64,000 bases of DNA from NCBI RefSeq assembly GCF_025526975.1, contig NW_026515693.1:310001-374000 (forward strand). The letters run 5' to 3'. Made by a program: the position numbers and the translations under genes. The notes under the pieces are model-generated. The model was not told where the DNA came from. It did no database searches and was given only the letters and a program-made list of their open reading frames with translations. How positions within the stretch are numbered: position 1 is the stretch's first letter; the number at the start of each line of letters is the position of its first letter. This document shows positions 1,971 to 38,902 of this stretch, one piece after another. Source of the stretch: Fimicolochytrium jonesii. Its lineage: Eukaryota.

Positions 1971-3728
1971 TCAGCCAGACTTGATTCGATCATGGGTGGC
2001 GACGAACCCACGCAATTCGGACGCTCCGACAGGATCCTTTGCATAATCCACTTGGCATAGGAAGCATAACTGCTTCTCGCAGATGAGATAGATTCGCACT
2101 GCGGTATGGGTGCAGATGACCAAGTACGCATCCGCGACGATCGCCATCGCGAAGCGATAGTATGGATCGCACGCAGCTTCTGCACCTTCGATCCAGCTGC
2201 TGCGGCTTGAACGAACGGGGAAACGCAATAACTGCGAGACGGACCCGTCGCTAACGTCCATCACTTGCACGAGGCCTAGGTCCGAGTCTACGCCCGAGAA
2301 GAAGGCGAGATTTCCGCTGCTGCAGGAGGGAGGATTTTCTGAGGACCACGAGTTTGTCACATGATGGAAGGGACGTTACTGCTCTGGCGGGGGTACGTTC
2401 CAGGGGGGGTTTTTCGCAAACCATTGCTTCTGACGAGTGTGTTTGCTGATGCAAGATACGAAGGATGAGAATTCGTCGGGATAGTCATAGTCGTCCGTGT
2501 GATAGTCGGCCGTTCCATGCGGTCCATAGATGAGAAGGCGCTCCTCGGTTTGAACTACCATCTCTATTGTGCCGTCAACGAAGTCGAGGGATCGCCGGTC
2601 GGCCGTGGCGATGGGCCCGGATTCTTCTTGTTCGGCATCATTGAGTATCTTGTCACCATTCCTTACGACGCCGAAGTGACCCCTATCCGCCAAAGGGAAA
2701 ATAAGAATGCCATGGGAGTGCAGATCAAGATCTTTGATCCAGTACCCAGTGCGAAGGTTGAACAACCGCAACTCGTCATTTCTGCCCGGCGCAATGAAAT
2801 GGTGCCCCGATATCACCCCCTTTGCCGCCATAATGGGCAAGTCCCATTCGAACTCCCGCATCACCTTGATTGTCCACAGGTGCTTGTAAGGAGCTTGGGC
2901 ACTCCAAACGATATAGAAAGAAGGAAGTACGATTGTCAGTGCGAGTGAGAGAGAGGGAGTGCGAGTCCGATCACTGCATTCCGATGTCTTTGTCTGATCA
3001 TGAAAGCGTGGGCCTGTGAACAACGCTGCATCCAAGTCCGCGGGAGCAGGATCCTGGCCCTCGATAACCATGACAATATACGTGTCGCTGGCGGCGAAAG
3101 AAAGACTGCTTGCGTACAACCCCATATTGTCAAGGAGTTGCGTTTTCTGCGCCGCCAGCCTCCGCTCCATCAAGTTGACAGGACCGCCTGGAACATAGGT
3201 GATGACTCGATCGCGATCTTGAAACACTACGACGTATCGAGTCGCGTATTCATCAACGTCCGGCCAGACGTCCACCAGCCGGCTTCGTACTTGTACCGGC
3301 GACTTTTCCGACCACCTGCCCAGAAAAAGCTCGGCCCCAACGGCATGTCGATACCAGTTGCACGGGGGGTCGAAGAACGGCAGCTCGTACTGCTTTTCTA
3401 GGCGGTCGACCTGCGCTGCCGGGATGCGCGGTGCGCCGACGCTAGGAGTGAGGTATCCAAGGGTACCCGCATCAGGCGAGGGACCAGCCGGCGGGACCGT
3501 CGAAGAGCTATCGAAAACTCTTCGCCAGAGCAAGTCGTCGTCCTTGAGCAAGTGGTGGAGCGCGCGGGAAGCAAGGCTCAGACGACGAACAGAGGCTGCG
3601 TCGAGGTGGTCGGCTATGAACAGCGCGCAAACCGACACGACGTCAATAATAGTCGGATTGGCGGTTCCGCCACTCCGAAGCGTGACTAGCAGGCGCTCGT
3701 CTCTCGCAAGTTGTGGTTCCACGGACAT
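1971..3728 (-). CDS. F-box domain protein with a beta-rich C-terminal region; 3' end uncertain
   Basis: ORF 2376..3989 contains an F-box-like segment (ALFIADHLDAASVRRLSLASRALHHLLKDDDLLWRRVF). The first ATG in good context is at 3728. The same frame resumes after a TAA at 2376-2378 (ORF 1971..2360). Confidence 0.6.
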
Positions 3729-4292
3729 ATTTTGTTCTAGTGGACGTAGGGATGCTGTGGTGTTGGAAAAGTGACCGGAAAGCACTTGTCCTTTCCCAAG
3801 GGTGACTGCTTGGGCGTTCGGGCTCAGGCAAAAACCGAGTTCGAGCTGACTGTAAGGCGATCGTTCCTCGCAACTGATATTTTGTATGTTTATGAGTGCT
3901 GGCGCAAAAGAAGGGTTCACATCGCAGGCTTCGACCCGCTGTCGTCCCTTGCAATTGATAATTGTTTGGATATGAGTGCTGGAGCACACGAGGGCTCGCG
4001 GCGCACGCTTCGACCCTCTTTTAGTCCTTTTCGTCCGTTGCCTGCGGTTTTGGCTCTTTAGCGAGTAGATGGGAATTCGAAGTTGCCGAAATGCCAGTCG
4101 GCCCGGCCCCCGCAGAATGTTTCAAGCCCGTCTCTTTGACGGGTTTCGACAGCGCGTCTCTCAACAGGAGAACACGCCCAGTTGTTGAGCTTTTCACTCG
4201 GTCTGCGACTCGCACTTTCCGTAAAAGCTGATTTGCGATCGCGATTGACATGACATCGTGAAGGCAACCAACTTCCATCTCATCGCAGGCCG

Positions 4293-5552
4293 ATGCCGCT
4301 CTCGCCCCAGGCGACCGGATCCTCCCTCGATGTGGAACATTTCCTCGTGAGGTTCGGAGGACCGGGTGAGCCGCCACTCCCCTCCTACGAAGACTTTCAC
4401 ACCAACTACATGGCCAAGAACCGTCTTTGCGTCTTCTCATATCCGCTTGAACCCGCGTTTACCGAGTGGACGCTTGAGGACGCCGAGTCCGAGGGCGTGC
4501 AGGATGCGGTAGCAGGGCGGCGAGGAACGCGGCGACCGAACTATGATCTCTTAGCACGGCGGTACGGGGACATAGAGGTTCAGCCAGCCGGCACCACCCC
4601 ATCAACATTCCGCCACTTCCTCCATGGTATGCAAAACGGCGAGCAAATCTACCTCCGCGACTGGCATCTCGTCTCCCATCTCCGCTCCACCGGAAACCAT
4701 CAAAAACCGTACACAACACCCCTCTGGTTCAAAGACGACTGGCTCAACGCATTCCTCGACAGCGAGAACACGGACCCAGCTTCGCGTAGCGACGACTACC
4801 GCTTCGTCTACATGGGCGCCTCAGGCACATCCACTTTGTTACACGTCGATGTCTTCAACAGCTACTCATGGTCAGCCAACATCTGCGGGACGAAGAAATG
4901 GACGTTTTTCCCGCCGGAGCAGACTCGGTACCTCACCAACGCGAGGGGGGAGACCATCACGGATCTGCGGGATGTGACACCCGACGAGCATCCACAGTAC
5001 TTTGAAAACGCGACACCGGTTGTGATCCATCAGCATGCAGGGGAATTGATCTTCGTCCCCTCCAGCTGGTGGCACCAGGTTGAGAACATCGGGGAGACGA
5101 TGTCGATCAACCATAATTGGTGCAATGCGACCAACTTGCCAAACATCTTTGAGAACCTGGCATCGGATTTGGCGTACATTCGGGAAGCTATCGCGGAGCA
5201 TAGGGAGCAGATGGGCGAGAGGGAGTGGGGTGAGCATTGTCAGTTGATGTTGAAGGCGAATAATGCGGGGTTTGGGTATCGGATGCTCGGGCGGTTTTGG
5301 AGGTTCCATGCTCGGCGCTTGCTGGGTTTGATTGGACGGGGGACTGGCGATGGAGAGCTGGATGAGCACGCGAGTGATACTGATAGTGCCCCGTGGTTGA
5401 AACCCAAGCTCTTGATCGAGTCGTTGGCGGTGTTGAACGACGTCTGGCAGCTTTGGACAAGGGACGAATGGGTCCTATCCATACTCGAAGACGAGGATGC
5501 TGCACTGTCCGAACACATGCAAACAATACTGGCTCCCACCGTCGCTTCTTAG
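4293..5552 (+). CDS. JMJD4: JmjC 2-oxoglutarate/Fe(II) oxygenase, JMJD4-like
   Basis: Motifs YLRDWHL, DDWLN, DYRFVYMG, HVDVFNSYSWSANICGTKKW and FVPSSWWHQVEN supply the HxD...H triad. Intronless 419 aa ORF. Confidence 0.9.
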   Translation: MPLSPQATGSSLDVEHFLVRFGGPGEPPLPSYEDFHTNYMAKNRLCVFSYPLEPAFTEWTLEDAESEGVQDAVAGRRGTRRPNYDLLARRYGDIEVQPAGTTPSTFRHFLHGMQNGEQIYLRDWHLVSHLRSTGNHQKPYTTPLWFKDDWLNAFLDSENTDPASRSDDYRFVYMGASGTSTLLHVDVFNSYSWSANICGTKKWTFFPPEQTRYLTNARGETITDLRDVTPDEHPQYFENATPVVIHQHAGELIFVPSSWWHQVENIGETMSINHNWCNATNLPNIFENLASDLAYIREAIAEHREQMGEREWGEHCQLMLKANNAGFGYRMLGRFWRFHARRLLGLIGRGTGDGELDEHASDTDSAPWLKPKLLIESLAVLNDVWQLWTRDEWVLSILEDEDAALSEHMQTILAPTVAS

Positions 5553-19949: not shown

Positions 19950-20165
19950 GGAGCGTCAATAAAGCACCGATGCACAGCTTGCGGACACGGGGGATAAAGC
20001 TGGGGGCTCTTGCAGCTTCAAGCTTCTTTATATAGGCGTGGGAAAGTGCGCCCATTCCCCAGTCCTACAGTACAAGTTGCCATCATCGGCGACGCCTCAG
20101 GCAGAGGTACAATGATGTGGATGGCAGATAACCACCACGGAAAATGGGATGGGGTGAAATCTAGA
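19950..20165 (-). ncRNA. Candidate Fanzor omegaRNA region (unverified)
   Basis: Lies immediately 3' of the Fanzor stop. Nested stems pair 19976-19981 with 20019-20024 and 19997-20002 with 20013-20018. A further hairpin lies at 20040-20059. Confidence 0.35.
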
Positions 20166-22549
20166 CTACCTACGGTTACGGGAGAATGCGTCTGGTCTGC
20201 GGCCATTGCCAAACACCACCGAACGCACAATCGAGAGGAAATTCTTGGTGCTTAGGACGTCCCGATTGTGCACTCTCATCCATAGTCGTAGTGGTCGTCT
20301 TCCAGGAATCTCAAATGGCGTCCAGTCTTGGTTGATACATTCGGGGTTGGGGCAACCCACCAATCCATGGACGAATTCCATTCTTCCCTTTCGAGCTTGC
20401 CACGGCCGAGGTGACAGCGGGCGTCGGATGTTTTTCTTCACACGCCCGTGGCAGTCTGGGCACAGGGAGGACGTTCGATACTCATCTAGCAAGTAGCATG
20501 GAATGCTGTTTCTTGCAAAGAGTGTGCGGAATCTGATTTCTCCCCATGAGTGAGCGTATTATAATACATAAAAAACAATGATGGTCACTCACCCTTTGGT
20601 CTTTGATGACTCCTGAAAGCGCATGGTTTTTCCAGCGTCGCTCCAATCACCCAAGATGACCAAAAAATGCTTTCCATACAGGCGTCGCATGTTCTTGATG
20701 AGCTTGCTCTCAGACTTTTGCCGCAGTGAGAACGCCTTGAATCCGCAAGCTACGTGAATCTCATCCTGGTAAAACTCATCCAGGGCGGGATCTGGGATAT
20801 GGATGTCAGCCTATGTATTACCAAATTTGAAGACAACGCATGATATATCATACCTGCATGTTCGTAATCCACGATGAACGCTGAGAACGCCTCGATGTTC
20901 ATGCTCTTGTGTGACGGAATATGTGATTCCATCTCTGCGATGCTGGCATTGATCTTTCGCTCCGTCATGTCTCGTTGAAAGTACCGAGACTTTATCTCGA
21001 CCGCCCGTTGATTGGATGTGTATCTGGTATGGGGTGGTGCATTGTGAGAACGCTGCAGCGGAATGTCGCCGCAACGGGGATGGTGGGGATGGTGATGGGG
21101 GGGATGGTGACGGGGGGGATGGTGGGGATGGGGGCGGGGACAGGGTTGAGGAGGGCGTTGGTGGGGATAGCGGCGACAGCGGGGACAGCGGGGACAGCGG
21201 GGACAGCGGGGACAGCGGTGACAGCGGCGACAGCGGGGACAGCGGGGACAACGGGGACAGCAGGGCAGTAGTAATCAACTGAAACGTACCGAAATTGCCG
21301 CTCCTTCTCGTTGTCTCGACAGAACAGGAGGTCACGCTTGCCCGGATCAATGCAGACGATGTTTGGAGCCTCCCTTAGTTCCGCGATGTGGTGCTCAAAA
21401 TACAGCTGCTTGACTTCTTCCTGCATTTGGGCCTTGCTGCGCTTCCGGGCCCGATGCCCATACTTGAGCCCTGGCATCTTGAAGTGGATGGTAGCGGAAT
21501 ACCCGTTTGTGCTGATTGACCCATCAAATTTGAGACCAAGCTTCTTTCGATCCTTGAAGACCTTGTCCTGCAATCCGTCATTCAGCCAGGTGAGGTGAGT
21601 GAAATAAGCGCAGAGGGATAGGGACTTACATTCGCGTTGATAAACTGCCCCCACAGCTCCCGCTTGCGTGCATTGGTGAATTTCCCCATGCGACTTTGGC
21701 CCAAGCCCAGGATATGAGTGCCTAGGATCAGCGTGTCGATCCGAACAGATGACTGGATTCGAGATTTGCGCAGCGAGATAGCGGAAAACAGGCGCATTCC
21801 ACGGCGCTCATAGAGGTGTGAGCTCACAATAGGCGCCTGTGATGAGGCGAGGCAGGTGCGGACCATGATTAGACAAAAGAGGAACGCGCGGGGAGGGGGG
21901 AGCCGGAAATATACCAACTCACCTAAATATGGCATTGCGTGCACCGCAAGGCTGTACGCAAGCGGCTCATCCTGGGGAGGAAACAGAGCCCATAGCTCTT
22001 CGAGGATGGTCCGCTCAAGTTGTGTGAGGCGCGCAAACTCCTCTTCGGTTGGAAACTCTTCAAACATCGCATACTTTGTAAATTGACGGACACGCCGATA
22101 ATACCGTTGGCGCTGCGCTCGGCTGACTCCGGCTCTACGGAGATGCAGTATGACTTGCTTCAAACCAAGCCTTTCATCGGCGTAGCGCAGAAACATTTGC
22201 ATGAAATGCTCTTGTACGTTAACTTTGAGGTTTGTGAGGATGCTCGTACCCGTGTACGCTGCGGTCTGTTGGCAATTTTGCATGCGGATGGGGGCGAATC
22301 CGTGAACATCACAGTAGTCTTGAACCCATGGACCCAACTCTTGCGTGATGTCCGGACTGCTGTTGTAGCCTGGATTGTTGAGCAGCTCAAACATCACACT
22401 GATGTGCTGGTCAGTGATGTCCAAATCGTGTAGAGGATGATCAGCTGTGGTGGGCCGACGTAGTAGTCAGGGCATTGTTTCATGGGAAATATACAGTTTA
22501 GCGCACCTCAAAAACTCACCAAGGTAGTACTTGAGAAAGAAGGTGGTGT
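20166..22549 (-). CDS. Fanzor (Fanzor1-type, TnpB-derived RNA-guided endonuclease), spliced; 5' end unresolved and may extend to ~23100
   Basis: Exons 22549-22520, 22444-21923, 21836-21630, 21567-21290, 21023-20854, 20791-20593 and 20532-20166 total about 590 codons. Motifs: TTFFLKYYL, FDGSISTNGY, RuvC-I CIDPGKRDLL, RYTSNQRAVE, QKSESKLIKN, VILGDWS, RuvC-II LLDEYRTSSLCPDC, HGLVGCPNPEC, RuvC-III HNRDVLSTKN. Confidence 0.92.
21070..21262. repeat. 9-bp minisatellites (GGGGACAGC)n and (GGGGATGGT)-like inside Fanzor intron 21024-21289
   Basis: About 10 tandem GGGGACAGC/GGCGACAGC units at 21163-21262 and degenerate GGGGATGGT units at 21076-21130. Confidence 0.9.
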
Positions 22550-22643: not shown

Positions 22644-22794
22644 CGCGAGTGCCCAAATCCAGGCTGCACCTCAAGCGGTTCCCAAAAAGCAACGAGAGCA
22701 TACCGCCAGTGCCCAAATCCAGGCTGCACCTCAAGCAATTGCGGAAGTTGGGAGAGCGTACCGCGAGTGCCCAAATCCAGGCTACACCTCAAGC
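22644..22794. repeat. Three-copy 33-bp hairpin direct repeat with variable spacers (CRISPR-like layout) in the 5' intron/leader of Fanzor
   Basis: CGCGAGTGCCCAAATCCAGGCTGCACCTCAAGC occurs at 22644-22676, 22704-22736 and 22762-22794, with one mismatch each in copies 2 and 3. The intervening sequences are 27 and 25 nt. Confidence 0.9.
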
Positions 22795-24747
22795 AATCGG
22801 TTTTGGTAATGTGTGCGGCTTCTAATTCTCACCTATAGTTTTACGGTCTGTTCCTTCCTTCCAGGTGTGGATGCACGGTGTGGACGTATCCCCAAGGTTA
22901 CCTGAGCGCAAGAGAGAGGGAGAGAGAGCGTGTGAGTGAGCGGGCATGGCATGGATCGGGTAGGGATTGGGAGTGAGAATGTGGATCCTGTTACCTTGAA
23001 GTTGAGGCGGTCGGTAGTACTGTAGGTAATGCCTGCGAGGGGAATGTCGGCACTGGACCCTGAAGAAAAAGTCCGGTTCACGCCTCCAGTGCAAAGTGTA
23101 TCCTTGTGAACGGTTAGAAAACACTGTTAGGAGATGTGTTTAGGCCTTGCGGTCGGGCTGCCTTCACGCTCGGCCTTACCCACGCTCGGCCTTACAGCCT
23201 TCACGCTCTCAGTGCCGTGGTTTGCCATTTGGAACGGCTGGTACGTAGGGGGTAGGCACTACTACCCCAGAATTCATTTCCCACAAATACTCATCATCCA
23301 AAAAACGAACCATGGCTTGAGTCCTGCAACATAGGGCACTCAGCTCTCCTCTTCCGCTTATGCAGATACCAATAGACGGACATGTGCAGTATTCGTGTTC
23401 GAGCTGGAGATGAGATATGGTGGGTGATCACTGAGGAGGAGGCTTTGCGACAAAGCGACAAACCGGATATGGAACTGTTTGGACGGAAAGGGGAGGAGAG
23501 GAGTGATGGTGGAGGAGAGGAGAGGTAGCTGGCAGGTTGTGCCGGGACTCCAGGACTCCCGCACTTGCAGAACATTCCCACTTGCGCATTCGTTTGCAGA
23601 CTAAGCGACGAAACGATTCTGAAGGGGAGGGGAAACAGACAAAGCGGGCCACAGCGGCACACGGATTCAGTCGTTTTAATACACTTCTGAAGCAAGATGC
23701 AGTCGGAATCATCTCACGCTTCAATCTCAATGTCGAATCTGCGGAGGAATATGCCACAACAATTGCGCACCCCGACACAAGCCGTATGCGGTGGGTAAAC
23801 GCCCAAAAAAAACATCTATATGACCAGCTCGGAGCGGAGAGAAGGAGGCGATCGAAGGGATTCCGTTGTCACCAACTCCAACTCCAACACCAGCCCATGC
23901 CCTCGACGCATTACTGAGCGCCGCGAAACATCTCCTCACTTACGCCGATTCCAGTATTGAATCCGGATTGTTTACCTTTGATCACACTACGGAGTGTGCA
24001 ACAGCAACAGGGACATCTCCGATGCTGTGTGCAATGCTTGGTGACGGGTCGGCTAAAGCTGATAATGTTTGTCAGCGAATTGAGACCCATTTTCGCACAC
24101 TTGCACGTAAGCTACATGCCATTGTCCTCATGCTCCGTGTGTCTGTCCTCGGCCACTAATCAGGGATATTATAGAAAACGCTTCATGCCCTCCCAAACGC
24201 CGCATGTACTTTACCTCCAGGGAGGATGTCGTTGCGTTTGTCAAAGAACGCTACAATCAGGCATTTGTGAAGGAGTGTCAACGAACACGTTTTCGCAAGA
24301 TATCGACCTTCCATGAGGGATACCCATATGCAAGCGGGTGTCCGCCATATCATCCATACTTTGCCGCGCTGGCCAAAGCAAAAATGGATCAAGGTCAGCA
24401 AGACATGTGGGGAATGTATGCCCCTTACCTGGAATTCAAGTGGCGCAAAAAGGGGCAGAAGCTGTCTCTAGGTAAGGCGACCGGACCGTGTTCCCGCATG
24501 CATTGACACAGCACACTCACCTACGTATCATACGACATTTTCGCCCCGGTTCTCCCAAATGACCCTCTCACTATGCGGCCCGGGGCGTGGATCCACCAGT
24601 TTGTTGACAAGGCTGCATGGGCACAGAACCGGGAAGGAGATCACCAGCCCACACCAACGCCTGGCCCAGCCCACACCACCACACCCAGCGCCATCTCAAA
24701 CCCCGACATTGGTTTTGCTTTCGGCGGAGTTGACGACGGCGGCGGCG

Positions 24748-24854
24748 GCGTTAAAATCGTGGCAAACAGCGACGACGGTGGCGGTGGAGTTGAAACCATG
24801 GCGGACAGCGGCGGTGGCGGTGGAGTTGAAACCATGGCGGACAGCGGCGGCGGC
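24748..24854 (+). repeat. ~36-bp coding tandem repeat (GGGVETMADSGG) that continues at 30736-30800 after the LTR element
   Basis: GTGGAGTTGAAACCATGGCGGACAGCGGCGG occurs twice before and once after the insertion. Confidence 0.85.
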
Positions 24855-25384
24855 TGTTATGGACGACGCGTCCATACCATGCGCTTACCTCATGACAGCA
24901 TCCCAACAGTCAGTCAATGTCAATTCCCTGTCAAAACCTGACATCTGCCAAACCTCGCAGCCGCACGCAGCCGCGCTACCCCACACCTGCCACTGCCTTC
25001 ATTTCTCCACGCAGCCGCACGTAGCCACACCTCCCAACACTCGGCGCTCACAAACCCTTCTCCATACTTCCCCACGTACCCGCCCACAGCCTCAGCGTAG
25101 CCACCCCATCCCCAGTCTTCTGTTTCTATGCTTCCCCACCCTTGGCGCTTCTCTTGGCTTCCCTCTCATTCCGTACCCTTCTGCTTCCCCACGCTTCCCC
25201 AGCCTTCCCAGAAAAACATAAATAGCCGCCTCCCCTGAGCTCCCCACTTCCTGATCCCCCAGCAGATCAACACCAGTTCTTCCTAGTCTTGTTCTAGTTC
25301 TTGTTTCGGTCTGAATACCATTACCTGTCAACAACCTGCACCACAAGTCGCCTCTATTTCCATCGGCTCCGCCCATTCATAACA
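24855..25384 (+). repeat. 5' LTR
   Basis: Identical by eye to 30201-30730 except C24956 versus T30302. Confidence 0.97.
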
Positions 25385-25435
25385 GTTTGATCTGCTCAAC
25401 AACCCCCAGCCGCTGTACCTCCACGCCAAATCACC

Positions 25436-26362
25436 ATGTCCGACGCCCTTCCCCTCACGGCCGAAGCCTGGCAAGCCATGTGCAATGCGATTGACGAACT
25501 TCGAGCGCAGAATACCACCCTACAAGCCGAACTAGCGCAAACCCAGACCACTGCCCCTGCCACCCACGCCCCCGAACCCAAAATCAGTCTCCCAGACAAA
25601 TTTGATGGCACCCGAAGCAAGTTCCGTGGGTTCCTCAACCAGATCCGGCTCATGTTCGCCCTTCAACCCAGGCGCTACCCCAACGATCAGACCAAGATAC
25701 GAACTATTGGCACCTACCTCACTGGCACCGCCCAGGCCTGGCTGGCGCCCCTTGTCGAACAAGACCATCATTCCCTTACGAACCTGGATGATTTCATCCA
25801 GCAAATGCAAGCAGTCTTTGGAGACAGCAACAGGATCCGCACGTCCGAAAACAAGCTCCAGAACCTTCGACAAACCCGTGCAGCAACAGAGTATGTAGCT
25901 GAATTCCGACAGCCGCAATGCGATGTGTCGTGGAATGACCAGGCATTGATTGCCACCTTCCGTCGCGGCCTCAAAGAAGACGTCAAGGACTTAATGCTCA
26001 CGATGCCCCCTACCGCCTCAATCGACACCGTGATGGAACAGGCCATCCAATGTGACAACCGATTGTTTGAGCGCCGTCTAGAGCGAAGCAGGAACCGACA
26101 GCCATATGTGCCAGTTACCACTAGCCCCACCCTCATGAGCCCCGACAACCGCCCAGACAACCCTATGATCATTGACGCTGCTCGTCCGCGAGGACCCCTC
26201 ACACCGCTAGAGCGCCAACACCGCATCACAAACAAACTTTGCCTCTACTGTGGTAAACCCGGCCACATAGCCAAACTCTGCCCAAACAAGATACGCACGG
26301 TGAATGTCGCGGTTAAGGAACCTGCACCCATCCAGGATTTTGCCCAAGTCCAGCTGCAGTAA
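25436..26362 (+). CDS. gag: Retrotransposon Gag with CCHC zinc knuckle
   Basis: Encodes EPKISLPDKFDG, LTGTAQAW, YVAEFR, FRRGLKEDVKD and CLYCGKPGHIAKLC. Confidence 0.95.
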   Translation: MSDALPLTAEAWQAMCNAIDELRAQNTTLQAELAQTQTTAPATHAPEPKISLPDKFDGTRSKFRGFLNQIRLMFALQPRRYPNDQTKIRTIGTYLTGTAQAWLAPLVEQDHHSLTNLDDFIQQMQAVFGDSNRIRTSENKLQNLRQTRAATEYVAEFRQPQCDVSWNDQALIATFRRGLKEDVKDLMLTMPPTASIDTVMEQAIQCDNRLFERRLERSRNRQPYVPVTTSPTLMSPDNRPDNPMIIDAARPRGPLTPLERQHRITNKLCLYCGKPGHIAKLCPNKIRTVNVAVKEPAPIQDFAQVQLQ

Positions 26363-29300
26363 AGGCCGAGCAGCTGGGCAACACCTGTCCTGGGCCTTCT
26401 CACCACGCAAGTACTGCCAAGGGAGAAGCCACAAAACCTTGCTCCGATCCTGGCATCTCCAGCAACACCCTTCTCCTGACCACCAACAATGTCAATCTCT
26501 GATCTGAGATACCCTCACCCATGCGGATTTTGGGCCCATCCCCACCATTCGAGTACCCTGTTACCCTGCAGATATCGGCCCAGTGAGCTCCAGTTCAGCT
26601 TTCAGCACTACTTGACACCGGTGCGATGTCGTGCTTCATCGACGAAAGTTATGCCCGCAAGCACCGCATCCCACTTGTCAAGAAGGAGGACCCCATTGCG
26701 CTTGAACTGGTTGACGGACGTCCCAGCCATGCGGGCTCCATTACCCATCACACCCAACCTTTGGGCATGTGGGTCAACGACCATTTTGAGGAGGTGGTAT
26801 TCCATGTGACATGTTCCCCGCATGCGCCAATCATCCTGGGGCTTCCCTGGTTTGAGCTCCATGATGTGGAGCTACACTGGAAGACTCGCACTCTTTGCGT
26901 CCGCTGCCATTGCGGTTTTGGACAATACGCCTCCTGGGATGCCCTGCCAACAGAACCTAGCCCGAAGCCCTCAAGAACCCCTGAACCTCTGATCCGTATC
27001 CATCAAGACGAGATTTCAGTCTCCCTAGCCCAGACACCCAACACACTGGACCCAGCACCCACACCGATCCACGTATCGTTTATCAGCGCCCCAGCTTTCC
27101 GTGTGGCGGCAAGGCATGACCAGGCATTCATTGCCTACGCCAATCCGACCAAGTCAGATTCCCAAGCCCTGGCGACCACTCCTCCAAAAGATCCGAAGGC
27201 CATCATTCCTGAAGAATACCAAGATTTTGCGGACGTCTTCGCCAAGAAGAACGCGGATACCCTCCCAGAGCACCGACCCTACGACTGTCCCATCGACTTA
27301 GAAGAGGGCAAACAGCCACCGTTCGGCCCGATCTATAGTCTCAGCGAGCCTGAAATGCAGGCACTCTGTGACTACCTTGAAGAGAACCTAGCTAAGGGGT
27401 TCATAAAGCACTCCAAGTCTCCCGCCGGTGCCCCAATCCTCTTTGTCAAGAAAAAGGACGGTTCCCTCCGTCTGTGCGTCGACTATCGTGGACTCAACAA
27501 TATCACCATCAAGAATCGCTATCCCTTGCCCTTGATTAACAGCATCATGGATCGTCTTCGAGGGGCACGCCGGCTCACCAAGATTGACCTCCGGGGAGCC
27601 TACAACCTTCTTCGGATCCGGCCAGGGGATGAATGGAAGACAGCGTTCCGATGTCGCTACGGCCTATTCGAGTATAATGTCATGCCGTTTGGGCTCACCA
27701 ATGCCCCTGGAGTATTCCAACACCTCATGAACGACATATTCCGTGACATTCTCGACGTTTTTGTTGTGGTCTACCTTGACGACATTCTGATCTTCTCAAA
27801 AAACCCAGAAGACCACCCCAACCACGTCCGAGAGGTGCTCTCACGACTCCGCCAGCACGGGCTGTATGCGAAACCGGAAAAATGCGAATTCAACCAGGAC
27901 TCTGTTGAGTTCCTGGGGTTTATTATCTCCCAGCAAGGCATTTCCATGGACCCAAAGAAGACGGCTGCCATTACCGAATGGGAACCCCCGACGAATGTCA
28001 AAGGCATCCAGCGCTTCCTTGGTTTTGCCAACTTCTACCGGCGATTCATCAAAGGGTACTCTGCGATCGTTGCACCCCTGACCACGCTCACTCGCAAAGA
28101 CTTGCCATTCAAATGGACCCACGCTGCACACCTAGCTTTTGAAACCCTCAAGAAAGCCTTCACCTCCGCACCTATCCTGACTCACCCCGACCCTGACAAG
28201 CCCTTCATTGTCGAATCCGATGCCTCCGACTTTGCCCTTGGCGCCGTCCTCCTTCAACCCGATGACACAGATCAACTCCACCCCGTGGCCTTTCACTCCC
28301 CCAAATTTACTCCTGAGGAAATCAACTATGAGATCTACGACAAGGAACTCCTGGCTATCCAAGACTCATTTGCTCAATGGCGACACCACCTCATTGGTGC
28401 CCGCCACAAGGTCATCGTTTACTGTGACCACAAGAACCTCCAGTACTTCATGACTACCCGTACCCTCAACCGCCACCAATCCCGCTGGTCAATCTTCTTT
28501 GCTGATTTTGACTTTGTCATCACATACCGCCCTGGTACCCAGCAACACCAAGCTGACGCCCTCTCTCGTCGCTCTGAATACGAGCTAAGGGAGGGGGAAG
28601 AAGCATTCCGCTCCCAGGAAACCACGATCCTCACCCCTGACCATCTCCGCCTGGCCGCCACTTATCTGACCCCACTGGACTCCTCGCTCCTTGACCAAAT
28701 CAAAGCTGCCCTGGCATCCGATGTGTTTGCGCAAACCATCCGGCGACAGCTTAGGGCCCCCATTGCCCAGCAATCTCAAGAAGACCAAGAACGGATAAAG
28801 CGATTCTCCGAGGAAAATGGGGTTCTGCTGTACGACAACCTTGTCTATGTCCCCACCAACAAGCTCCGTGCTGAGATCTGCCGGGACATGCATGACACGC
28901 GTTTGGCAGGACACTACGGCATGTCAAAGACCCTGGAGCTCATCTCACGCAACTACTGGTGGCCTAGCCAATGGCGTTTTGTCAAGTCCTACATCAGGTC
29001 CTGCGACGTATGTGCTCAAGCCAAGACCAGCAGACACAAGCCCTACGGTCTCCTCCAACCCCTGCAGGTCCCTGACCGCCCCTGGGGGTCAGTTTCCATG
29101 GACTTCATCACGGATCTACCCGCCAGTGATGGGGTTGATTCTGTGCTTGTTGTCATCTGCCGGTTCACCAAGATGGCGCACTTTGTACCGTGCAGGAAAA
29201 CTGCCACCGCTGAGTCAACTGCAGATCTGATCTGGCACCATGTCATCCGGCTCCATGGACTCCCCGACGATATTGTATCTGACCGTGGCCCACAGTTCAA

Positions 29301-30188
29301 CTCCCACTTCTGGAAACGTCTCTTCGCTCTCCTGGGAACCAAGGTCAACCTCTCATCGGCGTTCCATCCCCAGAGCGATGGACAAACCGAGCGGACCAAT
29401 CAGATTCTTGAGCAATACCTTCGCTGCTTTTGCAACTATCAACAAGATAACTGGAAGGAACTCTTGTCTTCTGCTGAGTTCTCTTACAATAACACCATCC
29501 ACTCCGCCACCCAGACAACCCCCTTCTACGCCAACTATGGGTTCCATCCTCGATTCAGTCTGGCTTCCGCCACCACAACCGAATCCCTTAATCCTGCAGC
29601 CGAAGCTCGTGCCAACCATCTCAAGGAAATCCATGAACAGCTTGCCACTGAGCTCGAGGAGGCCCAAGGACGCATGAAGCGCTTTGCCGATGCTAAGAGG
29701 GCACCTGGCCCAGACATGAAACCTGGGGACAGTGTCTGGCTCTTACAACGGAATCTCAAGACTCTCCGACCTTCCCAGAAACTTGATCACCGTAAGATTG
29801 GCCCCTTCACAATCACGGAGAAGATCAACTCGGTCACATATCGCCTCAAGCTTCCCCCATCCTACAAAATTCACAACGTCTTCCATGTCTCCCTTCTTGA
29901 ACCACGTTTCACCATTCCGGAGCGAACTGAGCCAGAACCCACCCCACCAGAAGAAGTCGAGGACAGGAGGAATGGATTGTGGAAGACATTCTTGACTCCC
30001 GTATTCGACGCACGCACCTTCAGTACCTCATCAAGTGGCAGGGTTGGCCAAGCTCGGAGAACACATGGGAGCCAGTGGAACACCTTGCCCGATGTCAAGA
30101 GCTTGTTGCCCAGTTCCACCAAAAGTACCCCGACAAACCCCGACCAAAGCCTGCCAACATCAAAACAACATCCGGACGCCGTGGCTAA
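26335..30188 (+). pseudogene. pol: Retrotransposon Pol (protease, RT, RNase H, integrase, chromodomain) with lesions
   Basis: Encodes ALLDTGA, LRLCVDYRGLN, YLDDILI, VESDASDFA, SMDFIT, IVSDRG, DGQTER and GPF. The chromodomain VEDILDSR..YLIKWQGW..NTWEP is in a shifted frame after ~29962. In-frame TGA stops lie at 26500 and 26584. Confidence 0.93.
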
Positions 30189-30200
30189 AGGAGGGGGTGA

Positions 30201-30730
30201 TGTTATGGACGACGCGTCCATACCATGCGCTTACCTCATGACAGCATCCCAACAGTCAGTCAATGTCAATTCCCTGTCAAAACCTGACATCTGCCAAACC
30301 TTGCAGCCGCACGCAGCCGCGCTACCCCACACCTGCCACTGCCTTCATTTCTCCACGCAGCCGCACGTAGCCACACCTCCCAACACTCGGCGCTCACAAA
30401 CCCTTCTCCATACTTCCCCACGTACCCGCCCACAGCCTCAGCGTAGCCACCCCATCCCCAGTCTTCTGTTTCTATGCTTCCCCACCCTTGGCGCTTCTCT
30501 TGGCTTCCCTCTCATTCCGTACCCTTCTGCTTCCCCACGCTTCCCCAGCCTTCCCAGAAAAACATAAATAGCCGCCTCCCCTGAGCTCCCCACTTCCTGA
30601 TCCCCCAGCAGATCAACACCAGTTCTTCCTAGTCTTGTTCTAGTTCTTGTTTCGGTCTGAATACCATTACCTGTCAACAACCTGCACCACAAGTCGCCTC
30701 TATTTCCATCGGCTCCGCCCATTCATAACA
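30201..30730 (+). repeat. 3' LTR
   Basis: Follows the PPT, ends CATAACA and is followed by the TSD GCGGC. Confidence 0.97.
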
Positions 30731-32495
30731 GCGGCAGTGGAGTTGAAACCATGGCGGACAGCGGCGGCGGCGGTGGCAGTGGCGGCGGTGGAGTTGAGGG
30801 AGTTGACGAGGACCAGGCGCGACAGATGATGAAGACTACCTATGATGAAAAGCGGCTGCTAGATTTCATCGCGCGAATGGCAGAGACCATCAACACACTC
30901 CGCACCCAGACAGACGACTTGGCAGTTCAGCTCTCTTTGGCAGCTCAGCTCTCTTTGGCAGAGCCCAACATCGAACCAGTCGAACCCGTCGCAGCCGCCA
31001 CTACTGAATCTCCTACGCACGCGCGTGTCAACAACAAAGAGCTAAACCCCGACCCCTCCGCAATGAATATAGTCGTTGACAGTTGGTGGAACCGGCCGCC
31101 GGCAATGTGGAAAGGCGAGCCGTGGCCAAAGGTGGATGAAAAGCATCTCATCTTCCTTCAACGTGTAATCAGGAGCAAAAATATGCCGGTGGGCCAGTGG
31201 GCTCTCGGTTGGGGCAGAAAGGAAGGAGAAGGAGACCTGAGGATACCGGCAGGGTTGTCGATCATTGAACCCGCCACCATTCGGCGGATTGTGAAAACCG
31301 ATAGCTGGCTGAACGATCAAGCTGTCAACAGGTTTGTTCCTGCTTTCCCGTGCGAGTGTGTGTCATTGTTGTCACTCACTGATGCTTGTGTCTGGATATA
31401 TAGGTGGTGCGTGTTGTTACAAGCCAGGTCATCACGGCACCCAACCATTTATCCGCCACTGCTAGCCGTCGGATCCACTTGGCTCCAAAGTGTCAAAATG
31501 GCACGGAGATCCAATGTCCCTATTCGGCTTGTTCCGGTAAGAAAAGTTACTTAACCGTACCGTACTTAACTAAACTAACTTTCCTTTTTTGTTTTATGTT
31601 AAGCGGTCGATCAATGTTGCAGAGTACAACATACTGCTATTCCCAACAAACCCAGATAATCTGCACTGGGTCCTGTTTGCAATACTTGTCGCGGTGCCGG
31701 CGCCCAAGTCCGCAAAACCCCTGGGCCCCCCTGGTTCGCCATTAACCAGACACGAAAACGTATCCCTCGTTTTATTTGACTCAAAGCCTCGCCCGAATGA
31801 CGGCGACTACGTTGATAAGATGGCCTATATCGGCTCCCTCTTGTGGGATTGGTACATTACGGCCACTGAAGCCCCGCTCAATCACACACTGACACCAACG
31901 GTTGACACCCTCTTCACGCCTCGACAGACCGATGACCAGAACTGCGGTACATTTGTGTGCATGATGGCTGATGCCATTGCCCGTGGTGCCGTGGGTGAGG
32001 TTTACGAATCATGGGTCAATCCGCAGACCGCCGTCAATGCCCGCCATAACATCGCACTGAGCATCGTGTTGGCCATGTTTCTTCACGATGGTGATGCTCA
32101 TCAGTATACGGATGTGACGAAGTGCTAGAGATGGAAGATGCAGATGCCGGGATGGAAGGTGCAGAGATGTCGGCGTAGGAGGAGGTGCAGAACGGGGTGC
32201 AGAACGGTGTTGTGCCGAAAGATGCAAGCTCCTAGTTGTGATAGGGGTAGAGTATAGTATATTATACGTATAGTACGCGCCTTCAGCCGAGTCGTGCTTC
32301 AAGTGGTGCCTCTGTGATGGCTTATTTTACGGCCACTTCGCCCTACTTCACATCTACTTCATATCTACCCGATTTTCACTTCCCGGTTCGACGTGCGGGG
32401 GACAAATTTCTCCCCAAAATCCATTGATGGCTGACTAGTACAAGTACTGACGCCTTCCTGTCAGTCGAGCAGCCACCTCAAGACGCATGGTTTGA

Positions 32496-33165
32496 AACCA
32501 AGCCGCCATCAAACTTGCAAACAATCCCGTGGATCATCAGCAAACGAAACACATTGACGTTCGACACCACTTTATTCGGGAACTTGTAGCTGAACGCAAG
32601 CTAGATATTCAGTATATCTCAACAAAAGAAATGATAGCGGACATCCAAACGAAAGCTCTTCCGAGACCGGCCTTTGTTTATTTACGGGAATTATGTGGGC
32701 TACGACAGTAAAGTCTACACTACACGCCGTATTGTTAAATAATGGCTCTTCGGAGCCAAGTGAGCGGCGGAGCGTCAAAAGCTACATGACACGACGGACA
32801 CCGAACTTGATTTGACGGGGGATGCCGAACAAGATAAATGGAGCATCAGTTGCATATGGTGCAGTTGCCACACGAGATCACCATGCGACACGAGATGGGA
32901 TTAGTGCCGCACATGCAGCACTGACGATTGTGCCGGTCCCGGGTTAAGTAAACTGGCCACGGGGCTCTAAGAGAAGCAATCAATACACGTTTATCAGTTG
33001 AATTACCTCCTCTCACCACTCACCGACAAACGCCACAGCGTGGGGCGTGCAATTGAGACACCATCTCCTGGACGATGCACGTACGGCAAAATAGGTGCCC
33101 GCACGGCCCGTTGTAGATGGCAGGGTTGACCATACAGATTGGGCAAGTTGGACCACCGTTCGGCA
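32496..33165 (+). mobile_element. Ty1/Copia 3' remnant: RNase H C-terminus, PPT and 3' LTR
   Basis: Encodes NQAAIKLANNPVDHQQTKHIDVRHHFIRE..MIADIQTKAL. PPT TTGACGGGGGA at 32812-32822. The LTR 32823-33165 is bounded by the 8-bp inverted repeat TGCCGAAC...GTTCGGCA. Confidence 0.88.
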
Positions 33166-33509
33166 TCTTGATGGATTGGTTGGATTTGGGTGTTGGAGAG
33201 AGAGAGTGTGTTGTTGATTGGAATGGAGCTATGAGCGGGAGTTGGACAGGCTGACTTTTGGACAGCTTGAGTCGGGGGAGTGTTGTGCAGAGATGCGAAC
33301 TATCCTGTCAGTTGCTGTCATTGCGTAAGCAGATGCGTAAGCAGTCTGGTCACGGTCAGAGAGACAAAGACCCCGACGCCAGAGTCCGAAGTATATAGAC
33401 ATACAACAAGTAATACAAAAAGACAACTAATGGTTCTACTCTTCATCGGCTACTTCCCAGTAATAATTCAACACGTTCTCCAATAAGACCGGACAACCCA
33501 ACACACATT

Positions 33510-33905
33510 ACACGTTTCCCCAAGAATGGGCCGCTCAGATGAATGATCAGCCCGTCGGGGGCTGTAACCGACTGATATTTCAGTGCATGCACCCCCTTAT
33601 GACAGTTGTAAAATTGCCGTTGCCCCTGTTTTGGCCGTGGGATTGGACGCACGGTGCCATCGATAAAACCGATACAGGTGCGGAGGGCGCCCGTTTTCTG
33701 GAAAACAGCATCAGCGTATTGACGCCGGCATTTTCCATCCATTCGCCTGCCATCAAAGTGGAAGAGGATGCGATATTCGCTGTAAAGCAGCAAGATGGTG
33801 TGATTGAAAATTGTCGAAAGCCACAGGATAGAGCGGCCAAAGATTGGTTCCAAATCCGGCCAGCGGCAAGGGTAGGCAAGCCGCCGTAATACAAGCAGCA
33901 GGGCC
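33510..33905 (-). mobile_element. PIF/Harbinger-type (DDE_Tnp_4, HARBI1-like) transposase fragment
   Basis: Encodes LRRLAYPCRWPDLEPIFGRS, CIGFIDGTVRPIPRP and YNCHKGVHALKYQSVTAPDGLIIHLSGP. Truncated at both ends. Confidence 0.85.
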
Positions 33906-33918
33906 TTACACAGTTGTC

Positions 33919-33988
33919 TGGGAGTGGGAATTGAACTCGCTACCTGCACGTCTGCAAGGAGAGCAATATTCAACTGTGCCAAAGCGCC
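33919..33988 (-). pseudogene. Degenerate tRNA-like sequence (possible SINE head)
   Basis: The minus strand has an A-box-like TGGCACAGTTG, a TTGCA loop and a B-box GTTCAATTC at tRNA spacing. The stems pair poorly. Confidence 0.4.
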
Positions 33989-34955
33989 AGTGTTGTCAGA
34001 ATGCAATTACAGTAGTACCAGAAGGGTGTACTGTACGGTACAGGTGGTCAAAAGAGCGTCCGAGAGAGCGTTCCATCACATGGGTTTCATCCCCTCAGGC
34101 CCCCTCACAAAAAGCGGCCTGTAAAAACCATGCTTGCAGACCGTGTGTGCTAACAAAACGTCCGAGAGGATTGGCGAACGACTGTTTTTCTCCCTGGAGG
34201 TACATTCAGAACAGTACTGGCATACCATACGCCAATGGACAGTCTGGGTCTAGTTTGAGGCTGTGTCAAACCGAAGGTGTATTGTAATGTGTTGCACAAC
34301 GATGAGAATTTGGATGGGAGGAGAGCCCAGGCCTGGTCGAGCTAACCCCAAAGAAGCTACCGCGCAAAGCTCAACTCTACGCGAACCGTGTCAGCCGTTC
34401 TATTGACCGAGAGCTTCGTTTGCTTGCTCTATAATAAAGCGTCTGGCTTTTCCAACCCTCTTTTTGAAACACTGGTTGCAATGCCCCTGCTGTGGCTGGG
34501 AGCTATGGGTTTTGAAGGAGGTCGCTCGCGTCCAACGCGTTTGCGCGTTGCGAGGGTGCTTACGTGAAGCAGTGATTACGTGAAGACTGAATCCATCTTA
34601 TGTCAGCGGGGATGGAAGCAACAAAGATGACAACGCGTTTGCTGGAGGGGGGCGGTGAAACACATACAGTACTGTACTATATGAAAACAAGTTGACGGAT
34701 CGTTATCACCCTCGCCCCCATCCATGCATGAGGCTGGAAATCGAGCGGACGGATGCACGGAAGGTCGCCGCCACCCCAGACCGCACTCCAAAGGGGATGC
34801 CCAAAAAGTGCACTTTTTCCCACTCGCAATTGAAGGCTTCATTTACACAAACAGGCCAGCAACAACACCCACCCGGCCAGCAACACTCAGGCAGGCCCTC
34901 GTCATCGGAAAGTCACCACCATACTCGATACGCTCACCGACCGGCACTTGCAACA

Positions 34956-38686: not shown

Positions 38687-38902
38687 GATAAATATTGTGA
38701 ATGACGAAGAAAGACTCCGGAGACTTCGTTGATGGTTTTTGTCGTTGGTGAAGTTGGCGAAAAGGGCGAAGTGCCTTCCTTACTTTCCTCACGCGATAAA
38801 TATTGTGAATGACGAAGAAAGACTCCGGAGACTTCGTTGATGGTTTTTGTCGTTGGTGAAGTTGGCGAAAAGGGCGAAGTGCCTTCCTTACTTTCCTCAC
38901 GC
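38687..38902. repeat. Perfect 108-bp tandem duplication in the MPP6/DHHC divergent promoter
   Basis: 38687-38794 is identical to 38795-38902. Confidence 0.95.

Follow-up and report, generated by a model that had tools for sequence, protein, structure and literature searches.

Among the described eukaryotic RNA-guided nucleases, the family reported here lies close to SpuFz1, encoded by the SPu-1 element of Spizellomyces punctatus (PDB codes: 8GKH, 9CEU-9CEZ; PMC10432273; PMC3627910), which has been solved structurally and is used for editing. According to the accessible text of Saito 2023, no transposase was found for SPu-1 (PMC10432273). Intron-containing Fanzors have already been published, for example CrFNuc (Jiang 2023, PMC10530073, accessible text), and the accessible parts of Yoon 2023 treat the DPG motif and the shifted glutamate as common to Fanzor1, Fanzor2 and pro-Fanzors (PMC10711439). 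In the accessible part of Supplementary Table S2 of that paper, 33 rows name Fimicolochytrium jonesii as Fanzor HMM hits. Seven of the eight rows that were compared correspond to accessions also found here (e.g. KAI8816250 and KAI8818693), and these rows give no ends, RNA or TAM. The five longest accessions, including the paralogue model P0022 used below, are absent from the Table S2 file (PMC10711439), and F. jonesii is absent from the searchable supplement files of Saito 2023. The accessible texts of PMC10432273, PMC3627910, PMC10530073, PMC10711439, PMC11423790, PMC12247965 and PMC13565253 contain no account of the family's ends or RNA, and among the literature matches listed, Fanzor and Fimicolochytrium occur together in a single paper, where the contexts are unrelated.

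The enzyme type is already well known, and the copy in the 64-kb stretch of F. jonesii DNA analysed here (the window) is most likely a fossil; what is added is the right end of the element, a candidate RNA scaffold, introns that are not shared and a variable helix equivalent to the one that reads the TAM in SpuFz1. With high probability the locus is what remains of a six-intron Fanzor1 gene, frameshifted, truncated at the 5' side and in all likelihood dead. The gene belongs to a multi-copy, probably non-autonomous TIR transposon of this soil chytrid fungus, and its intact copies are predicted to be SpuFz1-like.

Exon-intron structure and lesions of the window copy

On the minus strand, positions 22549-20166 hold seven exons joined by six GT..AG introns, with lengths of 75, 86, 62, 266, 62 and 60 nt for introns 1-6. 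The features are as follows.

22520..22549, minus strand: exon 1, which reads TTFFLKYYL; family homology starts here
21923..22444, minus strand: exon 2, REC region, with the equivalents of SpuFz1 Q129/Q130 and with Ala as the equivalent of N133
21630..21836, minus strand: exon 3, REC/WED, in which the frameshift lies, a nearly invariant Pro is replaced by Ser, and a variable helix corresponds to the SpuFz1 R291 region
21290..21567, minus strand: exon 4, WED and RuvC-I, with the catalytic D at 21348-21346 equivalent to SpuFz1 D383
20854..21023, minus strand: exon 5
20593..20791, minus strand: exon 6
20166..20532, minus strand: exon 7 with the stop, carrying the RuvC-II E, the zinc finger and the RuvC-III D
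21024..21289, minus strand: intron 4, 266 nt long; a minisatellite with a 9-nt unit occupies 21163-21265
21808..21816, minus strand: frameshift and resulting stop; the single base 21816 remains of a codon
22550..22832, no strand: 5' break zone, whose sequence is foreign to the family; it has a good 3' splice site (22550) and contains a 58-bp tandem repeat

The joined peptides of the six junctions are present in 6, 8, 16, 24, 34 and 43 of the 48 paralogous models, counts that refer to gene-model predictions rather than RNA, many of the models being partial. Because these peptides recur and the intronless SpuFz1 aligns without interruption over all six junctions, the splicing pattern goes beyond chance. 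A repeat similar to the intron-4 minisatellite is read through in the paralogue model P0033. The catalytic motifs lie exactly where the original prediction had placed them: IDPGKRD of RuvC-I with its D at 21348-21346, DEYRTS of RuvC-II with its E at 20483-20481 (SpuFz1 E541), and NRD of RuvC-III with its D at 20261-20259 (SpuFz1 D606). The predicted zinc finger is formed by CPDC (20462-20451) and CPNPEC (20354-20337), after which the RuvC-III aspartate comes. The RuvC-II glutamate is shifted to six residues ahead of the first CxxC (E-YRTSSL-CPDC, 20483-20451).

The same prediction described an intact family member of about 590 codons, and of this the seven exons and six GT-AG introns stand while the open frame does not. 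Together the exons add up to 1773 nt, a length that is divisible by three and accounts for the count of 590 codons, yet no frame is open (4, 22 and 14 internal stops in the three frames). With the canonical donor 21922, the upstream frame ends after 192 codons at the stop 21810-21808. At this break in exon 3 nine paralogue models read YC[ED]LS[RH]LYE, and the reading of the window copy occurs in none of them; since only base 21816 is kept of the Arg codon where the paralogues read YCELSRLYE, the lesion amounts to a loss of 2 nt. The comparison with paralogues, made on protein models, bears out the junctions and at the same time reveals a deletion that had been overlooked. Read through with an X at the break, the product has 590 residues and is 87% identical to residues 170-761 of P0022. 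Besides the X, 25 residue changes are private to the window copy at columns covered by at least six models, among them the replacement of Pro375, nearly invariant in 78 sequences, by Ser.

The truncation at the 5' side had been missed as well. Position 22549 is not the start of the gene, as the long paralogues begin about 169 residues earlier, and a tblastn search of the whole 64 kb with family residues 1 to about 169, which include the first WED strand, gave no credible match. Upstream of exon 1 the family 5' exons and the left end are missing, and a 58-bp tandem repeat of 2.6 copies (22644-22797), perhaps a subterminal part of some other element, adjoins the break. Considering the exon-3 frameshift together with the missing N-terminus and left end, we regard the window copy as most likely a pseudogene that encodes no working nuclease.

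Further upstream, three exon-like pieces with good splice sites (22833-23228, minus strand) begin with an ATG at 23228 and continue in frame into Fanzor exon 1. The ORF in this region (22836-23126) gave no usable match in the Atlas, and the pieces are without likeness to the family.

Relation to Fanzor1 and the Fimicolochytrium jonesii family

Exon 7 alone matches SpuFz1 at E=4.6e-28 and exon 2 alone at 3.2e-21. The homology and fold search that had been proposed for the spliced protein was run on the full-length paralogue P0022, which matches SpuFz1 at E=4.6e-149, PpFz1 at 2.4e-37 and GtFz1 at 2e-4, and through which D383, E541 and D606 of SpuFz1 align to the three catalytic residues of the window copy. 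The AF2 model of P0022 has a pLDDT of 83 (78-row alignment), with low confidence for residues 1-125. According to a Foldseek search with this model of the paralogue, SpuFz1 ranks first (E 1e-51, TM 0.91 by target) and the top seven hits are Fanzor1 chains; the large REC lobe is present, and the homology of P0022 to Fanzor1 extends over the full length. In a tree built by a quick method from 34 selected rows, the window copy falls into an F. jonesii clade with 100% support, nested in a 98% clade with an S. punctatus Fanzor. In total 1841 representatives were found, the nearest named ones beyond F. jonesii belonging to Phlyctochytrium arcticum and S. punctatus; a search for relatives in viral contigs found none. 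Pfam gave solely sub-threshold matches to Cas12f1-like_TNB (E 0.05-0.08).

The kinship with Fanzor1 expected from the motifs is supported by sequence match, fold and tree, although the motifs themselves, which had been taken to define Fanzor1, are present without being specific to it (PMC10711439, accessible text). As the DPG and shifted-glutamate motifs are common to all Fanzors, the assignment is based on the homology to SpuFz1, and that the gene is a Fanzor1 is strongly supported.

A search with exon 7 returned 13 proteins, all from F. jonesii and 68-98% identical. Ten clusters were expanded to 48 members, of which three unrelated ones were dropped (P0030, P0043, P0047), and with three unexpanded representatives this gives 48 models. 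The element family is multi-copy, with 48 F. jonesii gene models, adjacent ones of which may be pieces of one locus; the copies were compared as protein models rather than as DNA alignments. Compared with the X-read product of the window copy, the longer models show 78-93% identity, and none of the 48 matches it completely. While P0022 (761 residues) and P0023 look intact, P0027 looks internally frameshifted. In general, the catalytic residues are well preserved, E656 being kept in 45/45, D731 in 40/40 and D497 in 24/25 of the models covering each. Three models, P0027 among them, combine the triad with junction 2/3 and the WED strand, the other 45 being without some tested feature.

The right end, the predicted omegaRNA and the neighbouring genes

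A fraction of 0.06 of the words was found in a soil metagenome run, X1, and three of five contigs from this run leave the window at 20070/20071 with other flanks. The minus-strand sequence just before the divergence reads ...CTTG-TA. One of these contigs matches 20070-20109 exactly, diverges on both sides and is without the RNA 5' motif, behaviour which suggests a left TIR. The evidence for the end comes from one metagenome run and short contigs, two of which were merged in a consensus at 0.7 agreement. The features at this end are as follows.

20071..20109, minus strand: right terminal repeat, a probable TIR of about 40 bp, which measures 39 nt or more when the TA (20071-20072) is counted in
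20071..20145, minus strand: predicted omegaRNA scaffold, 75 nt from the TTTTCCG motif (20145) to the terminal TA, delimited by comparison by eye
20056..20070, minus strand: predicted 15-nt guide in the host flank, by analogy with SpuFz1

The TA at 20071-20072 is a putative target-site duplication; it is called putative since no single insertion was seen with both ends. A second TIR or left end was sought in the 64-kb window and none was found. A Helitron-type CTAG end right after the stop was rejected, as the contigs continue to 20071. The X1 contigs are deeper over the end than over the gene, which would fit ghost elements; this was left unused because depth does not give a copy number. Some 630-650 bp separate the predicted guide, on the upstream side, from the probable start (19423) of a protein-kinase gene, which was recognized by its kinase-domain match.

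Could the 75 nt at this end be the omegaRNA of the family? Its length is that of the SpuFz1 scaffold. When it is compared by eye with the published SpuFz1 RNA, without gaps and starting from the TA, agreement is seen at 14 of the first 20 bases and at 29 of all 75 (binomial 3e-5 for the first-20 window, which was chosen afterwards, and 0.006 for the whole 75). Bases U5, C6, C7, U16, U18, C19, C32, U35 and A75 are kept, and G17, G20, G22, C34, G37 and A72 are changed. Stem 1 folds with pair probabilities of 0.63-0.86, three of its pairs being changed on both sides relative to SpuFz1, and a terminal stem 2 like that of SpuFz1 has a pair probability near 0. The scaffold as a whole folds no better than shuffled sequences (z between -0.64 and -1.04, with +0.61 in the longest window). 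Rfam returned no match for the scaffold, and an exact search of metagenome contigs with a 24-nt end pattern returned none either. By analogy with SpuFz1, we predict that the 75-nt right-end scaffold serves as the omegaRNA of the family.

As for a transposase, the original prediction recognized no cognate one beside the gene, and indeed none was identified, but a Harbinger-type fragment (DDE_Tnp_4, E=4.1e-8) lies at 33443-34006 on the minus strand, 11 kb from the Fanzor. Its best matches are oomycete and unnamed proteins at about 50%, and it is probably unrelated to the Fanzor. No end of an enclosing element was found around the two in the window.

The intervening region has features of its own. 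A recent Ty3/gypsy LTR retrotransposon occupies 24855-30730 (plus strand), with 530-bp LTRs that differ by one mismatch, a GCGGC target duplication and gag and pol domains. It splits an Ulp1 (Peptidase_C48) gene (23929-24854 and 30727-32128, plus strand), which is probably transposon cargo. Two F. jonesii paralogues of this gene, both almost complete, share one contig, and there is one partial match. A short frame at 32480-32712 (plus strand) is a copia remnant, resembling what we take to be the RNase H end of Ty1/copia pol. Further on, 38687-38902 holds an exact 108-nt tandem duplication that may be an assembly artefact.

TAM contacts, alternative readings and comparison with known systems

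The equivalents of Q129, Q130 and Y345 are kept in the family. On the other hand, the N133 equivalent is Ala in 12 of 12 sequences, R96 aligns to Gly in seven of nine and to Arg in two (the alignment is gapped here), and the position of R291 varies among the paralogues (R in eight, H in four, Q and C in one each). Residues 398-403 of P0022, equivalent to the WED helix that touches TAM position -4 in SpuFz1, form the most variable six-residue window among the paralogues, with 11 variants in 14 sequences (permutation p=0.0004; p=0.011 and p=0.005 with windows of eight and twelve residues). Part of this variability is due to Arg columns, which overall are about twice as variable, and behind which we infer CpG decay; residues 398-400, however, are not Arg and carry shared variants. 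The same helix varies between orthologues (Xu 2024, accessible text). Relaxed constraint is as plausible as selection for the variability of helix 398-403. The altered contacts, including the mostly lost R96 as the other -4 contact, suggest by analogy a TAM other than CATA, which could widen the targeting range. It is rather unlikely that the family represents a Fanzor1 transposon of recent activity in which the TAM has diverged between copies; if true, one genome would be a natural library of SpuFz1-like nucleases with one shared 75-nt RNA and different or relaxed TAMs.

How firmly do these data point to a dead copy of a mobile nuclease gene? The gene might instead be intact, with the frameshift an assembly error or bypassed via the weak donor 21914, and with three upstream exons (23228-23180, 23123-22995 and 22901-22833, with GT..AG introns and in frame from an ATG) supplying a new N-terminus. 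Splicing from 21914 to the acceptor 21836 does give 592 open codons, and every catalytic residue is preserved. This splice, however, swaps the conserved AYCELSR (AYCKLS in SpuFz1) for unrelated residues, the new N-terminus resembles neither the family nor the WED strand, the break lies outside any homopolymer, and the window copy carries private changes at conserved sites, so that we hold an intact gene to be very improbable. The opposite extreme, that the whole family has ceased to be a nuclease system, the right end being kept as a transposon end only and the proteins being decaying cargo, would agree with the 45 of 48 models that are without one of the tested features (mostly fragments), with the changed R96 and N133 equivalents and with the failure to predict stem 2. 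It is less easily reconciled with the retention of E656, D731 and D497 in 45/45, 40/40 and 24/25 models, and with a scaffold 5' part, outside the TIR, that keeps the protein-contacting U5, C6, C7, U16, U18 and C19, and we judge it unlikely.

The neighbourhood raises the question of whether a larger composite element carries the Fanzor as cargo, together with the Ulp1 gene, and is moved by the Harbinger-type transposase at 33.4-34.0 kb. Matches to Ulp1 (C48) and DDE_Tnp_4 do lie upstream, the Ulp1 paralogue KAI8818696 is three accession numbers from the Fanzor fragment KAI8818693 on one contig, and a Fanzor family with a Harbinger transposase, MCi-5, has been published (accessible text). With 48 models in about 11,700 accessions, though, such adjacency is estimated to arise by chance in a few per cent of cases without clustering, and the gypsy element and copia remnant are situated between them, an arrangement like that of a transposon cluster. 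A 3-bp TWA target site is typical of Harbinger elements, but the three flank readings have TA alone in common. Moreover, no left TIR was found anywhere upstream in the window, and none of the 29 matches to the transposase fragment (only lengths of 102-328 residues) is named as F. jonesii. We give this composite element very little weight.

The preferred reading remains that of a broken copy within a family whose intact members are SpuFz1-like. Intact copies such as P0022 (761 residues) would be spliced and translated, and the nuclease would, by analogy with SpuFz1, take up an RNA in which about 15 nt of host flank follow the 75-nt right-end scaffold. Its target would be a TAM ending in TA plus the flank, that is, the empty site after excision or on the homologous chromosome, and with the filled site as repair template the element would be regained. 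According to the accessible part of a review, such restorative homing has been shown for prokaryotic TnpB/IscB and, for Fanzors, only proposed. The filled site has TGTA at its end, a sequence that the TAM should therefore avoid; the left-end-like contig reads GGTA, a single contig being too little to call a TAM. Although the window copy would be unable to produce the nuclease, it may still provide a guide RNA, as the SPu-1 ghost loci do. Transposition would depend on a transposase acting in trans, and the TA and TIR end presumably points to one of the Tc1/mariner type, of which none was identified. An intact-looking paralogue, an element end and a candidate RNA are now at hand for testing, and the search for the transposase can start from the TA/TIR end.

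Compared with SpuFz1, the family is about 42% identical over the whole nuclease and has the same fold, the D-E-D triad and the conserved Q129, Q130 and Y345. Its element resembles SPu-1 in ending in TA with a probable TIR, in the predicted 75-nt scaffold, and in being multi-copy with no linked transposase identified. In contrast to the DPN motif of SpuFz1 the family has DPG, N133 is replaced by Ala and R96 mostly by Gly, the R291 position is variable, and the N-terminus is longer by about 115 residues, modelled with low confidence and containing a basic PRRKRRK stretch. The probable TIR is at least 39 nt long, whereas that of SPu-1 has 30-33, and its terminal sequence is unrelated; the window copy, unlike SpuFz1, is broken. 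CrFNuc, a Fanzor1 from Chlamydomonas, is likewise a spliced gene in several copies, but it sits in Helitron2 elements (PMC10530073, accessible text), while the F. jonesii family is SpuFz1-like and ends in TA with a probable TIR.

The Phlyctochytrium arcticum Fanzors (P0056 cluster) and a metagenomic locus, L001, the one locus to which 249 candidates of a metagenome protein scan reduced, are about 42% identical to P0022 and belong to the SpuFz1 clade of the tree. L001 (511-2787) encodes an intact, two-intron Fanzor of this clade with 717 residues and a DPN motif, which is 41.5% identical to P0022 and 47% to an S. punctatus Fanzor. An intronless ORF adjoining it (3720-5095) looks to us like a viral primase, for which Pfam gives no support. 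Similar to the F. jonesii family, L001 has a TTCC-plus-hairpin motif 25 nt past the stop; a clean TIR pair was sought in it and not found. Its two introns lie at positions outside the six of the window copy and, since they are not shared, independent gains are likely the simplest reading of the Fanzor introns, as judged from three lineages only. Whereas SpuFz1 is a single ORF with no intron, L001 has two introns and the family at least six, a series that suggests repeated intron gain inside a mobile gene.
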